A DNA stretch of 10,766 bases. Origin: a virus. The notes beneath the pieces were generated by a model, which was not told the origin of the DNA, did no database searches, and worked only from the letters and a program-made list of their open reading frames with translations. The translations under genes were made by a program, and so were the position numbers. Each line of letters begins with the position of its first letter. Position 1 is the first letter of the stretch. Below, in pieces: positions 4,233-9,794 of this stretch. The stretch is from UHGV virus genome UHGV-0121619. One strand, 5' to 3'.

Positions 4233-4269
4233 TGCCAATCTGTTCCGTTTGGCTACCAGCGTCCTGCTG

Positions 4270-4340
4270 ATGTGTTTAGTATCACCGCTAGTGGTATGCG
4301 TGTCAACACCGCCAGAGATAATTTATCACCGCAGATGGTT
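4270..4340 (-). promoter_or_regulatory. OL1-OL2-OL3 operators with pL promoter (lambda-type)
   Basis: TATCACCGCTAGTGGTA (4280-4296), CAACACCGCCAGAGATA (4304-4320), TATCACCGCAGATGGTT (4324-4340); on minus strand -35 TTGACA (4301-4306) and -10 GATACT (4278-4283), 17-bp spacer. Confidence 0.85.
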
Positions 4341-4482
4341 ATATGTATGTTTTTTATATAGATTTATTTTTTGCCGGGGTGTGTTGCTGTGGTGGTGTGA
4401 TCGAGAGATCAGAATTGCGATGTTTAGTGAGTTGTATCTATTTATTTTTCAATAAATACAATTGGTTAATGTGTTTTTAGGT

Positions 4483-4494
4483 GGGGGGGGGGGG
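4483..4494. repeat. homopolymeric G12 tract
   Basis: Twelve consecutive G at 4483-4494, directly visible; non-coding spacer between OL3 and the bidirectional terminator. Confidence 0.9.
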
Positions 4495-4512
4495 ATCGAG
4501 AGGCAAAGAAAA

Positions 4513-4540
4513 CCCGGCGCTGAGGCCGGGTGGGGTTTTG
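4513..4540. terminator. bidirectional intrinsic terminator ending the cI operon (tIMM-like)
   Basis: Stem CCCGGC (4513-4518) / loop GCTGAG / GCCGGG (4525-4530); plus strand followed by TGGGGTTTTGTT, minus strand followed by GTTTTCTTTGCC; begins 11 nt after the stop of the 56-aa gene. Confidence 0.65.
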
Positions 4541-4711: not shown

Positions 4712-5614
4712 TTATGACTCACTTTGTTCTGAGAATGGGAATGAAGACAGAACAAGAACCTGTCGATTTGTCTTATACATGTATTCATTAATGACGTTGT
4801 GCAGATTTTTTAACGCCATGCTAAAATCTTTGTCGTATGTAAAGTCTTCTACTTTAATTCTTAAGTCATTGATAAGAGTATTTATTCCTATCGTTCTTCC
4901 GTGAGAATGCCACTTTCCGTTGTCACTAAGAGCGGTAGCGATCATTTTAGCTCTCGCTTCTTTTTCCCTCTTGGAAACTAGCTTTCCTCGTTTTGTGTTA
5001 CCTTGATGAACCGTCCACTCTCTGAATTTATACTCTACAAGCCACTTCTTAAGCAAGTCTATTGATAGCTCTCTGGCTTGCTCGTATCTCCTTAAGTGCG
5101 CAAGATCTAACTGACTAAGCATCATTAGTTCAGCTTGGGTAATGGTTCCTTCTCTGGATTTAGTAATCATTTCTTCAACTTTATCAAGGTATCCCAAAGC
5201 AGGAACCCATTTACCGTCAGAGGATTGCACTTGAGGGTCAATGGGGCCTAATGAAGAAGCATAGTTCATGTAAATTTTATCTCCAGACATACACCATATT
5301 GTGCCTGCCGACATGGCCATATCTGGAATGATAAAATATACCTCTTGATAGAAATGCCTTGTAATTTCTACCATTTTTTCCACAGACTCAACAGAGCCAC
5401 CATTTGTATTGAGTATAATAACTAGAAATCTATTGGTACGACTGTTAGCCATCTCCCCAATAGCCTCAAGTTTTGGTTGGTAAACTTCTTTTGACCATGG
5501 AAAGATACCACCGTAGTACGCTATGACGTCGCAGCTTGGGAAAAAGTTATTTTTAAATTGCTCTAACTGCCAAGAAATGTATGTTTCTAGTGTTGAATCA
5601 AGATTTTGGCTCAT
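4712..5614 (-). CDS. ClpP/S49-fold serine peptidase-like protein in the rexAB position (candidate exclusion/defence gene)
   Basis: 300-aa ORF; block LVIILNTNGGSVESVEKMVEITRHF...YFIIPDMAMSAGTIWCMSGDKIYMNYASSLGPIDPQV resembles the GG...(A)ASGG nucleophile region of SppA/ClpP-fold peptidases (putative Ser102 in AMSAG); lies directly downstream of cI on the same strand. Confidence 0.75.
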   Translation of the reverse strand: MSQNLDSTLETYISWQLEQFKNNFFPSCDVIAYYGGIFPWSKEVYQPKLEAIGEMANSRTNRFLVIILNTNGGSVESVEKMVEITRHFYQEVYFIIPDMAMSAGTIWCMSGDKIYMNYASSLGPIDPQVQSSDGKWVPALGYLDKVEEMITKSREGTITQAELMMLSQLDLAHLRRYEQARELSIDLLKKWLVEYKFREWTVHQGNTKRGKLVSKREKEARAKMIATALSDNGKWHSHGRTIGINTLINDLRIKVEDFTYDKDFSMALKNLHNVINEYMYKTNRQVLVLSSFPFSEQSES

Positions 5615-5686: not shown

Positions 5687-6403
<717 letters not shown>

Positions 6404-6410
6404 TTAAATC

Positions 6411-6476
6411 TATCACCGCAAGGGATAAATATCTAACACCGTGCGTGTTGACTATTTTACCTCTAGCGGTGATAAT
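6411..6476. promoter_or_regulatory. OR3-OR2-OR1 operators with divergent pRM and pR (lambda-type)
   Basis: TATCACCGCAAGGGATA (6411-6427), TAACACCGTGCGTGTTG (6434-6450), TACCTCTAGCGGTGATA (6458-6474); pR -35 TTGACT (6448-6453) and -10 GATAAT (6471-6476); pRM TAGATA/TAGATT on minus strand. Confidence 0.9.
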
Positions 6477-6500
6477 GATTGCATGTACTAAGGAGGTTGT

Positions 6501-6701
6501 ATGGAACAACGCATAACCCTGAAAGATTATGCAATGCGCTTTGGTCAAACCAAGACGGCTAAAGATCTCGGCGTATATCAAAGCGCGATCAACAAGGCCA
6601 TTCATGCAGGCCGAAATATTTTTTTAACTATAAACGCTGATGGAAGCGTTTATGCGGAAGAAATAAAGCCCTTCCCAAGCAACAAAAAAACAACTGCATA
6701 A
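6501..6701 (+). CDS. cro: Cro repressor, lambda type
   Basis: 66-aa [41 protein letters not shown]... recalled as near-identical to lambda Cro; GGAGG RBS upstream. Confidence 0.95.
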
Positions 6702-6707
6702 GTAACA

Positions 6708-6742
6708 CCGCTCTTTATCAATCTGCACCGCCGACAACGCGG
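6708..6742 (+). promoter_or_regulatory. nutR (boxA + boxB), P22-type
   Basis: CGCTCTTTA (6708-6716) - 9 nt - ACCGCCGACAACGCGGT (6726-6742, 5-bp stem hairpin) immediately downstream of cro. Confidence 0.7.
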
Positions 6743-6807: not shown

Positions 6808-7104
6808 ATGGAACAAACAAGTTACAGCAAACTATCACAGCGCGACGTTGATCGCGCAGAAACAGATTTACTCATCAACCTGTCAACGCTTACCCAGCGC
6901 GGTTTGGCAAAGATGATTGGCTGTCATGAATCGAAGATAAGCAGAACGGACTGGAGATTTATTGCTTCGGTCTTGTGTGCTTTCGGAATGGCATCAGACA
7001 TCAGTCCGATTAGCAGGGCTTTTAAGTATGCGCTTGATGGACTCACCAATAAAAAACGCCCGGCGGCAACCGAGCGTTCTGATCAAATACAAATGGAATT
7101 TTAA
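6808..7104 (+). CDS. cII: CII-like transcriptional activator (mosaic: divergent N-terminal part, lambda-like C-terminus)
   Basis: 98-aa ORF; C-terminal ...LTNKKRPAATERSDQIQMEF matches recalled lambda CII C-terminus; N-terminal two thirds differ from lambda CII. Confidence 0.8.
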   Translation: MEQTSYSKLSQRDVDRAETDLLINLSTLTQRGLAKMIGCHESKISRTDWRFIASVLCAFGMASDISPISRAFKYALDGLTNKKRPAATERSDQIQMEF

Positions 7105-7116
7105 CAACATCCAGCG
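7048..7116 (-). ncRNA. oop: oop antisense RNA (lambda-like), overlapping 3' end of cII
   Basis: Minus strand ...TGATCAGAACGCTCGGTTGCCGCCGGGCGTTTTTTATT matches recalled 3' half of lambda oop RNA including terminator and U-tract; candidate pO -10 TATAAT on minus strand at 7122-7127. The 5' end is approximate. Confidence 0.55.
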
Positions 7117-7126
7117 AGGTAATTAT

Positions 7127-7399
7127 ATGCGAAACAAAGGCTTTAATCCACCTGATACACACAAAGAAGTTAAGCGTTTGCGCTTCCTTCGTTCCATTGA
7201 TGAAAGAACTCAAATCTCTTTTGTGAAAGTTGCCAGAACTGAGCTTCTGAAGGCTGAGGCGAGGGCGTTGCTACCGTCTATACCAAAAGAGGAGGGATAT
7301 ACGTTCATTCCAAACGCATTTCTGGAAAAGCTGCTCAAAGAAGACATATCCGTAAGTCAGTTTAACGATGTTCTTAAGGTCTTTCGTCAAGGCAGGTAG
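7127..7399 (+). CDS. hypothetical 90-aa protein between cII and the replication initiator
   Basis: ATG 7127-7129 with GAGG upstream (MRNKGFNPPDTHKEVKRLRFLRSIDERTQISFVKVARTELLKAEARALL...); the ORF-track 145-aa version extends upstream into cII in another frame and is unlikely. Confidence 0.55.
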   Translation: MRNKGFNPPDTHKEVKRLRFLRSIDERTQISFVKVARTELLKAEARALLPSIPKEEGYTFIPNAFLEKLLKEDISVSQFNDVLKVFRQGR

Positions 7400-7401
7400 T
7401 T

Positions 7402-8349
7402 ATGAGCAATACAGCAAAAATCTACGATTTCAGCGCCGCACACGAGCGCAGGAGCAACAGGATGGAGAACCAGAAAACTGGTTACATTCCGTTGTACCGG
7501 AGCATTCTGAAACAGTCATGGGCGAAAGATGTTTATCTTCGCACCCTGTGGGAAAACCTTCTCCTGAATGCCGCCAGAAAGCCATACAAAGCGAATTTCA
7601 AAGGTCATGAATGGCATCTGCAACCCGGTCAACTGGTTGTGACAGCAGCTGATTTAGGTCTTCAGTTATGCGACAGGCATGGCAAGCCGGCAAGCCGTGA
7701 TCAGGTTGAGCGGATGCTTCAGGTTTTTGTGAAAGAGGGGATGATCTCCATTGATGGAGAGAAGCAAAAAGGTCGTGTGATAACCATCACAAATTACCAT
7801 GAATATGCTCAAAAAATGGACAATTTACCCGCACATGAAGCCGCACAAACAACCGCACATGATGCCGCACATGACGAAGCCAGTAATGGCGCGGCTTTCA
7901 GAGTACATGCCGCACATGAAAGCGCACATGAAGCCGCACAAACAACCGCACATCATGAACAAGAAGGTATTAACAAGAATATAAATAATGCCCCCCTACC
8001 CCCCAATGGGGGCGGCGATGGGCAGGTTAAACCTGAACGTCGCAAGGCAGAACGAATCGACTACGAATCCTTCCTGAACGCCTACAACACCGAAGTCGGT
8101 GACAGACTGCCACACGCTGTTGCGGTCAACGAGAAACGCAAACGCCGCCTGAAGAAAATCATCCCGCAACTGAAAACGCCAAACGTGGACGGTTTCAGAG
8201 CGTATGTCAGGGCGTTTGTGCATCAGGCAAAGCCGTTTTACTTCGGAGACAACGACACGGGCTGGACGGCAGATTTTGATTACCTGCTGAGGGAAGATTC
8301 GTTAACGGGAGTTCGGGAAGGGAAGTTTGCAGACAGGGGGATTGCATGA
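7402..8349 (+). CDS. replication initiator (lambda O / P22 gp18-like) with internal origin
   Basis: 315-aa ORF; N-terminus [10 protein letters not shown] resembles lambda O MTNTAKILNF; contains tandem iterons, AT-rich tract and Pro/Gly linker mid-gene; stop overlaps helicase start (ATGA at 8346-8349). Confidence 0.8.
7829..7957. repeat. origin-like iteron array: two clusters of four tandem 12-bp repeats (CCGCACATGAnG / CCGCACAAACAA)
   Basis: Units at 7829, 7841, 7853, 7865 and at 7910, 7922, 7934, 7946; followed by AT-rich 7958-7990 and C6-TA-C6-AAT-G5 hairpin-prone segment 7991-8013. Confidence 0.75.
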
Positions 8350-9722
8350 GACAGGATATCGAAGCGAGCGTTATCGGTGGCCTGCTGATTGGTGGATTAA
8401 CACCGACTGCCAGTGACGTTCTGGCAACGCTTGAGCCGGAAGCGTTTTCAATTCCGCTCTACCGGAAAGCCTTCGAGGTTATCCGCAAGCAGGCGAGGAA
8501 CAGAAACCTAATCGACGCGCTGATGGTTGCCGAGGCGTGCGGAGAGGAGCATTTCACGTCAATCCTGATGACCAGTAAGAACTGCCCGAGTGCCGCAAAC
8601 CTGAAGGGATATGCCGGAATGGTCGCGGATAACTATCACCGCCGTCTGGTGCTGGAAATCATGGATGAAATGCGTGAACCAATTCAGAGCGGAACCATCG
8701 ATACATCGAGTCAGGCGATGGACGAGCTTGTAAAGCGTCTCTCAGCCATCAGAAAGCCCCGTGACGAGGTTAAACCTGTACGGTTAGGGGAAATCATCAC
8801 TGACTACACTGACACGCTTGACAGGCGTCTGAGGAACGGAGAAGAGTCAGATACCCTGAAGACCGGAATCGAAGAACTTGATGCCATCACCGGAGGGATG
8901 AACGCAGAAGACCTGGTGATAATCGCTGCTCGTCCTGGTATGGGGAAAACCGAACTGGCGCTGAAGATTGCCGAAGGCGTTGCAAGCCGCGTTATTCCTG
9001 GTTCTGACGTCCGGCGCGGGGTATTGATTTTCTCAATGGAAATGAGCGCATTGCAGATTGCAGAGCGAAGCATCGCCAACGCCGGGAGGATGTCGGTTAG
9101 CGTGCTGCGAAATCCTGCATCGATGGATGACGAAGGCTGGGCGCGTGTTGCTAACGGCATGAGTCAGCTTGCAGATTTGGATGTATGGGTAGTCGATGCC
9201 TCGCGGTTATCGGTCGAAGAAATACGCTCAATCGCAGAACGGCACAAACAGGAAAATCCAAACCTCTCACTCATCATGGCGGATTATCTTGGCCTGATTG
9301 AGAAGCCGAAAGCAGACCGCAACGACCTCGCAATTGCTCACATCTCCGGAAGCCTGAAGGCGATGGCGAAAGACCTGAAAACGCCTGTTATCTCCCTGAG
9401 TCAGCTTTCGCGCGATGTTGAGAAGCGACCAAACAAACGCCCGACAAACGCAGATTTGCGTGATTCAGGAAGCATTGAACAGGACGCAGACTCAATCATC
9501 ATGCTCTATCGGGAAGCGGTATATGACGAGAACAGTAGCGCCGCACCATTTGCTGAAATCATTGTGACAAAAAACCGTTTTGGCTCGCTTGGTACGGTTT
9601 ACCAGCGGTTCTGCAACGGACACTTTGTTGCATGTGACCAGGATGAAGCCAGACAGATTTGCACAGCATCAAATGCGCCCGCTGCGCGTGGCAGACGATA
9701 TGCACAAGGGGCTGACGTATGA
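8346..9722 (+). CDS. DnaB-like replicative helicase (P22 gene 12 type)
   Basis: 458-aa ORF; Walker [13 protein letters not shown], DnaB-like N-terminal domain and C-terminal RecA-like core ([12 protein letters not shown]..., [11 protein letters not shown]). Confidence 0.9.
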
Positions 9723-9748
9723 CCATCTACGTCACTGAGCTAATAACA

Positions 9749-9780
9749 GGCCTGCTGGTAATCGCAGGCCTTTTTATTTG
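9749..9780 (+). terminator. intrinsic terminator after helicase gene (tR2-like)
   Basis: 8-bp stem AGGCCTGC (9749-9756) / loop TGGTAATC / GCAGGCCT (9765-9772) followed by TTTTTATTT. Confidence 0.7.
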
Positions 9781-9794
9781 GGGGAGAGTAAATC

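Follow-up and report, generated by a model that had tools for sequence, protein, structure and literature searches.

Mosaic structure of a lambdoid cII gene and its abrupt breakpoint at the oop antisense terminator

Introduction

The antisense RNA OOP of phage lambda (77 nt, 38675–38599) is transcribed from the promoter pO (TTGAGT-17-CATAAT, on the minus strand, with its −10 over the O start codon) as far as the terminator tO and, according to Krinke and Wulff as they are cited in PMC5488031 and PMC7067206, it pairs with the 3′ end of cII and acts via RNase III. In addition, the promoter reportedly depends on extended sequence rightward of the point where the RNA begins (PMC5869508), and the same paper cites Kobiler (2002) for the last 16 residues of lambda CII constituting an FtsH degron that is both necessary and sufficient for degradation.

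Comparable arrangements have been recorded in other lambdoid phages. In the GenBank record of P22 (NC_002371), both a promoter and a terminator of oop are marked at the c1/oop locus, at the same place as in the sequence presented here, and that of HK633 carries a feature described as “similar to lambda oop,” again at the same place. An OOP transcript was detected by RNA-seq in BTP1, a P22-like prophage (PMC7067206), and OOP-like sequences have been reported in Stx phages (PMC5488031; PMC12197685). The oop regions of 23 lambdoid phages were aligned by Hayes et al. (2012), with differences of phage 21 in the oop/cII overlap (PMC3349717), and it is also at this location that a 33-bp lambdoid boundary, conserved across those 23 phages, has been defined (“sequence 5” of Clark et al., 2001; Hayes et al., 2012, Fig. 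S1; PMC3349717).

The object of the present analysis, which we call the window, is the whole 10,766-nt stretch of DNA of the virus genome UHGV-0121619, for which an earlier note, made from the sequence without database searches, had suggested a mosaic cII.

Results

The early region and its matches to lambda

The DNA of the window represents the early genes of a lambdoid prophage, and cII sits between cro and the replication genes in the rightward early operon, which is the position of its family:

First in gene order: Erf-type recombination module, then a sieB-like gene, then an N-like gene
4712–5614, minus strand: 300-aa ORF between cI and pL, at the position of lambda rexAB
5687–6400, minus strand: cI (ORF list, Pfam)
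6501–6701, plus strand: cro (ORF list, Pfam)
6808–7104, plus strand: cII, 98 aa (ORF list, Pfam, PHROG)
7127–7399, plus strand: orf90, 90 codons, between cII and the O-like gene (phrog_2519, function unknown)
7402–8349, plus strand: O-like replication gene
8346–9722, plus strand: DnaB-like helicase gene

The 300-aa ORF matches phrog_11747 (function unknown) and, weakly, families of head-maturation (ClpP-like serine) proteases, and an accessory or exclusion role in the prophage is possible. As for cII, its product belongs, by its profile matches, to the CII family of lambdoid transcriptional activators: Pfam Phage_CII (PF05269) covers residues 1–91 (profile positions 1–90 of 91, E = 2.4e-34, 117.9 bits with a cut-off of 21.3), the CII-like activator family phrog_191 is matched at E = 3e-38, and the solved lambda CII structures 1xwr, 1zpq and 8igr at E = 1e-9. 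Phage Stx2_16002 encodes a protein 100% identical to it, and across Stx1, Stx2, HK97 and mEp phages the overall identity is 84–100%.

When the window was compared by blastn with lambda 35000–41000, four matches were obtained in total: the cI–cro immunity block (5691–6715, 97.4%), the pL/oL region (4259–4531, 87%), an identical patch of 70 nt where the helicase gene ends (9719–9788), and a match of 59 nt at 7042–7100 (93.2%, E = 7e-20), which is the sole one across cII and its downstream flank. Lambda identity ends at 6715, right after cro; the immunity region is lambda’s own, and there is no likeness to lambda in the N-like gene, the post-cro region (that of nutR in lambda), the replication genes or the body of cII. 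No phage record covering more than 49% of the window was found, and the whole region is therefore a patchwork.

A junction within cII

The nucleotide sequence was compared segment by segment with that of 16 other phages, the segments being the following:

6808–7041, plus strand: cII body (helix-turn-helix and oligomerisation part), of the phage 21/HK97/Stx-phage type by nucleotide identity
7042–7082, both strands: 41-nt block, encoding LTNKKRPAATERS on one strand and the oop terminator on the other, defined by identity to lambda, 434, HK633 and Gally
7083–7126, both strands: last 7 cII codons, stop codon and spacer, with the 5′ half of the predicted oop on the minus strand, a non-lambda variant

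From 6861 to 7041 the body is 93–100% identical to those of mEp234, HK97, VT1-Sakai, imm21 and 24B, against about 50% for lambda, 434 and Gally, a figure that comes from forced global alignment and amounts to the unaligned level; from 6808 to 6860, identity to phages of the 21/HK97/Stx type is 81–96%, so that by segment the body is common to phage 21 (imm21), the Stx phages, HK97 and mEp234 at 81–100%. The first 17 or so codons (6808–6860), which hold the pRE −35 and the CII site, form a sub-mosaic of their own, 94–96% identical to mEp234 and 24B and 81–85% to HK97, VT1-Sakai, imm21 and POCJ13; beyond 6860 the bodies of HK97, VT1-Sakai and imm21 are 93–100% identical, and that of POCJ13 only 70–80%.

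The block that follows behaves differently. Pairwise alignment with lambda gives 41 uninterrupted identical bases at 7042–7082, and the identity is likewise 100% to 434, HK633 and Gally, with 68–73% to HK97, VT1-Sakai and mEp234; beyond 7082 nearly each codon up to the stop is changed relative to lambda, mostly at the third position. The plus strand of the block encodes K82 K83 R84 P85 A86 A87 T88 E89 R90 S91, with which the CII tail begins, and at the protein level 19 of the last 20 residues are identical to lambda CII, compared with 19 of the other 68 aligned residues (about 28%).

The maximum chi-square method, applied to the informative sites of the triplets window/lambda/HK97 and window/lambda/VT1-Sakai, places a breakpoint between 7041 and 7042 (chi-square 89 and 92; 0 of 2000 permutations), with 114 of 118 informative sites HK97-like in the body and 13 of 14 lambda-like to the right of 7041. 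From the 3′ end of oop (lambda 38599, window 7050) to this junction there are a further 8 nt. Thus, cII is genuinely mosaic, and the change of type at the oop terminator is abrupt. The earlier note had taken only the last 20 or so codons of cII to be lambda-like and had put the junction near 7040–7050, at the oop terminator; the tail does hold the only lambda match in the gene, the breakpoint shows the estimated position to have been right, and the alignments to lambda and other lambdoids that the note had proposed revealed this breakpoint rather than a uniform divergence.

The same pattern could be read without recombination, if cII had diverged uniformly in the distant past and the 41-nt identity had been maintained by purifying selection on a segment that codes both for the tail and for the terminator. 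Such a reading would draw on the RNA-level constraint to which the hairpin is subject (see below), and on the third-position changes past the block, which are those of an old divergence under protein constraint. However, the constraint fixes no single sequence, many alternative stems being in existence, and it would have to accommodate bodies 93–100% like that of the window which carry blocks of 68–73% identity, unalignable bodies which carry a block of 100% identity, and a breakpoint that none of the 2000 permutations reproduced. The mismatch between body and block requires exchange; selection without recombination is therefore very improbable, and it was rejected on account of both this incongruence and the breakpoint test.

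Even less credit, practically none, can be given to the junction being an assembly chimera or the artefact of a single sequence, which has nothing in its favor except the abruptness of the change. The 220-nt span over both junctions (the second is described below) is 98.6–100% identical in the eight complete Escherichia coli genomes listed, identical cII proteins are encoded in 12 viral contigs, and at least 50 phage records, the majority from Stx2a phages at 98.6% identity, contain a 721-nt region. An assembly artefact was accordingly rejected, as the arrangement recurs in many independent records. Among 5,426 complete E. coli genomes, 65 carry the 220-nt span, counted as genomes covering at least 80% of it.

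Assortment of the tail/terminator segment

Within the loci that were fetched, an exact 35-mer of the block is found on three types of body (21/Stx, lambda/434 and Salmonella g341c) and adjoins four downstream types, and the three body types that carry the identical 35–41-mer cannot be mutually aligned. Conversely, bodies 93–100% identical to one another carry at least four tail/terminator alleles, those of the window, of 24B/imm21, of HK97/mEp234 and of VT1-Sakai: unlike the window, the tail of phage 21 and 24B has a 3-nt loop insertion (RPVCKTERS), that of HK97 and mEp234 reads KKSPAATEDFKQIDMQF, with the stem UCCUCGG/CCGGGGA, and that of VT1-Sakai reads KKSPVAAGDSKQIDMQF. The 21-type bodies, for their part, are followed by a lambda-like oop 5′ part and pO in 45 of the fetched loci and by the window-like variant in 20, although relatives of the window are over-represented among these loci, and such counts therefore show which combinations exist and not how frequent they are. 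The tail/terminator segment does behave as a small, independently assorting unit.

A second junction, within oop

On the minus strand, the following elements can be read:

7050–7080, minus strand: oop intrinsic terminator, a 12-bp stem (7080–7069 with 7064–7053), loop UGCC and U6A to 7050 (terminator scan, fold)
7050–7115, minus strand: predicted oop-like antisense RNA of about 66 nt (3′ end by lambda register, 5′ end from the −10)
7122–7150, minus strand: predicted pO, with −35 TGGATT (7150–7145), a 17-nt spacer and −10 TATAAT (7127–7122), read from the sequence

The segment 7083–7126 is 95–100% identical to 24B and Gally and 41–68% to lambda, with 41% to lambda in the oop 5′ part (7105–7126), and hence a second junction, near 7083–7090, lies between the terminator block on one side and the oop 5′ half with its promoter on the other. 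The window-type oop 5′ part and pO are common to 24B and to Gally, which has a lambda-type cII body; the adjacent orf90 (segment 7127–7420) is 97–100% identical to Gally only, among the phages compared. No Pfam match was obtained for orf90, the position of which is empty in lambda and occupied by orf48 in P22 and gp53 in HK97. The oop 5′ half and the predicted pO travel with the downstream module of orf90 and the replication genes and not with the terminator block. It had previously been suggested that oop and the cII tail are kept as a unit; this is sound insofar as the tail/terminator segment assorts independently, but it fails for oop as a whole, which is split near 7083 and therefore was not moved as one unit.

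The predicted RNA overlaps the last 55 nt of cII, stop codon included (7050–7104), in the register of lambda 38599–38653, and folds at −21 kcal/mol (z −2.7) into the terminator and a small 5′ hairpin of 4 + 2 bp. The −10 of the predicted pO is a perfect consensus that overlaps the orf90 start codon, with a start near 7115, while its −35 matches the consensus in only 3 of 6 bases, because of which the site was unreported by a consensus promoter scan; the promoter call thus rests on sequence reading and on positional homology. At the place of the extended region of lambda pO, the sequence of the window has been replaced. The conserved 33-bp pO/oop box, ACTGGATCaATCcACAGGAGTaATTATGaCAAA, is present only in its central 18 bases, which align with 14 of 18 identical (window core ATCCAGCGAGGTAATTAT), and its left part, ACTGGATCA, is absent. 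Given the weak 5′ hairpin and the diverged box, promoter strength and RNA stability may differ from those of lambda, and by analogy with lambda the window-type oop would be transcribed from the predicted pO. A search of the available literature for primary expression data on the window-type oop in Stx phages found none, only reviews noting similar sequences. No OOP family was matched in Rfam over the whole window at the gathering threshold, and at a permissive E-value the region 6950–7200 gave only chance matches to MicC and His_leader (E of about 1).

The terminator hairpin and its constraint on the tail

The terminator of the window is the lambda oop terminator (tO) base for base, and the hairpin with its T-run (7080 to 7053, minus strand) was found independently by a terminator scan. 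All the cII alleles collected have a hairpin and U-run at the same place, although with different stems:

CGCUCGG/CCGGGCG: lambda, window
UCCUCGG/CCGGGGA: HK97
UCCCCGG/CCGGGGA: VT1-Sakai
CGUCCGG/CCGGACG: POCJ13
GCCUCGG/CCGGGGC: Midgardsormr38

Further variants of the stem are present in other phages. The diversity of alleles was obtained by searching DNA for the pattern of the conserved box, a search with a diverse CII alignment having given only proteins at least 95% identical, which served to count downstream partners. In an alignment of 15 alleles, 87.8% of the cells are paired, against 44–58% after displacement of the 3′ partners by one to three columns, the former value being lowered by the long-loop alleles of Hafnia and L103, which MAFFT misplaced and which were left uncorrected so that the alignment should not be adapted to the structure. 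Five pairs are changed on both sides, and none of 500 shuffles of the 15 alleles reaches the covariation score observed; at pair 19–41, 6 alleles have CG, 4 have GC and 4 have UA, and at pair 20–40, 9 have CG and 6 have GC.

The covariation extends to the protein. Residues 84 and 90 of the tail (codons at 7057–7059 and 7075–7077) co-vary as R/R, S/D and A/A across alleles, because the antisense stem pairs 7057 with 7076 and 7058 with 7075 on the other strand; these compensatory changes alter residues of CII, and RNA structure is therefore a primary constraint on this segment of the gene. Taking the 87 viral contigs in which a CII-family ORF ends at most 135 nt upstream of a conserved pO box, an antisense hairpin with U-run is found at or just past the cII 3′ end in 72, of which 53 have it inside the coding sequence, 10 across the stop codon and 9 downstream of it; under strict criteria, the hairpin and U-run were not found in the other 15. 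The pattern argues for selection at the RNA level that keeps the terminator hairpin across the whole CII family.

In the contig L109 (8902–9210) and some 25 similar viral contigs, the cII-like ORF has 73 aa and lacks a tail of the KKRPAATERS type, and an antisense hairpin (GAAAGCCG...CGGCUUUC) is found past the stop codon, upstream of the conserved pO box. These contigs represent a natural uncoupling of the CII tail from the oop-like terminator, a further point on which the earlier suggestion of a conserved unit lacks support.

It might be supposed, in consequence, that it is the antisense terminator, and not the function of the protein, which for the most part dictates the sequence of the CII tail, the FtsH degron being secondary and the block serving mainly as a crossover point; this we regard as a tentative and rather doubtful extension.

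The pRE site and promoter specificity

One further element lies within the first codons of cII:

6830–6817, minus strand: predicted CII-binding repeat of pRE, TTGCTGTAACTTGT, at an offset shared with other alleles

The motif TTGC-N6-TTG(C/T) is found at this same offset in all 17 cII alleles, that of the window included, in which the second half-site is TTGT, as it is in mEp234, 24B, P22 and g341c. The lambda equivalent of the predicted site, TTGCGTTTGTTTGC, has the same offset, and the site is annotated in mEp234, VT1-Sakai, HK633 and P22. Within the protein, the recognition-helix motif S-x-I/V-S-R is kept across alleles. The conservation of both the site and the motif therefore argues for a shared DNA target, and Wulff and Mahoney (Genetics, 1987) reportedly described cross-activation between the proteins of lambda, 21 and P22.

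The promoter specificity upstream had been thought exchangeable, an idea that does not agree with these observations. It belonged to a wider proposal, in which the cII tail and the whole of oop would form one inherited unit and the DNA-binding part would have been swapped to alter the target promoters. Conservation of the tail/terminator block on very different bodies is what this proposal would predict, and so is a body with so low a protein identity to lambda; but the second junction divides oop, leaving its 5′ half and promoter to follow the downstream module, and both the pRE motif and the recognition-helix motif are kept. We therefore consider the proposal improbable.

Discussion

The locus is very probably an ordinary lambdoid cII–oop locus, assembled by recombination from three sources and working by the same mechanism as in lambda. 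These sources would have been: (i) an allele of the phage 21, HK97 and Stx-phage type for the cII body (6808–7041); (ii) a lambda-identical stretch (7042–7082) for the start of the tail and the antisense rho-independent terminator; and (iii) a third variant (7083–7150), with the last cII codons, the oop 5′ half and the promoter, which would have come with orf90 and the replication module.

If it works as in lambda, pO, with its −10 over the orf90 start, would produce an RNA of about 66 nt that ends in U6A near 7050, and this RNA would pair with the last 55 nt of the cII mRNA and lead to its RNase III-dependent decay; the lower level of CII would in turn favor lytic growth. The tail, on the same analogy, would make CII a substrate of FtsH, so that CII would remain low unless lysogeny were favored. 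Compensatory changes in the stem would have dragged amino acids of the tail along with them, and the short conserved stretches could have doubled as crossover points between modules.

The cII/oop patchwork is real, it is common, and it has already been described in lambdoid phages, such that nothing in it should surprise a specialist. What it permits is the annotation of the oop terminator, the predicted pO and the pRE site, both here and in the many prophages of the Stx type in which the locus is arranged alike. The patchwork clearly exemplifies sub-genic mosaicism at a dual-coding segment, although it matters little beyond annotation, and it serves as a caution that a divergent CII body does not imply an altered promoter specificity. 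The window-type oop, which is shorter and has a weak 5′ hairpin, another −35 and a diverged box, is common to clinically relevant Stx2a phages, where it could set a different level of CII and, with it, a different behavior in lysogenisation or induction.

Comparison with known systems

The closest of the known systems is the cII/oop locus of lambda, with which the window shares the order cro, nutR, cII, oop and replication genes, a terminator and first 13 tail codons identical over 41 nt, 19 of 20 tail residues, a predicted antisense overlap of 55 nt, a predicted pO with its −10 placed on the start of the next gene, and a TTGC-N6-TTGY pRE site inside the first cII codons. It differs from lambda in the body (about 28% protein identity), in the oop 5′ half, which is some 11 nt shorter and is without the 11-bp stem I of lambda, in the −35 and all the DNA upstream of pO, and in the next gene, which is orf90 and not O. 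Nor does the window-type oop have the strong first stem-loop seen in the oop RNAs of lambda and of HK97. In P22, the promoter and terminator are annotated at the place of the predicted promoter and the terminator of the window, but the P22-type tail is shorter and of unrelated sequence, and its hairpin spans the stop codon instead of lying about 20 nt inside the coding sequence. Finally, the 33-bp lambdoid boundary has the same location (pO and the oop 5′ end) and, as here, joins modules of the immunity side to those of the replication side; in the window, however, its core has diverged, and the identity to lambda lies instead in the terminator block.
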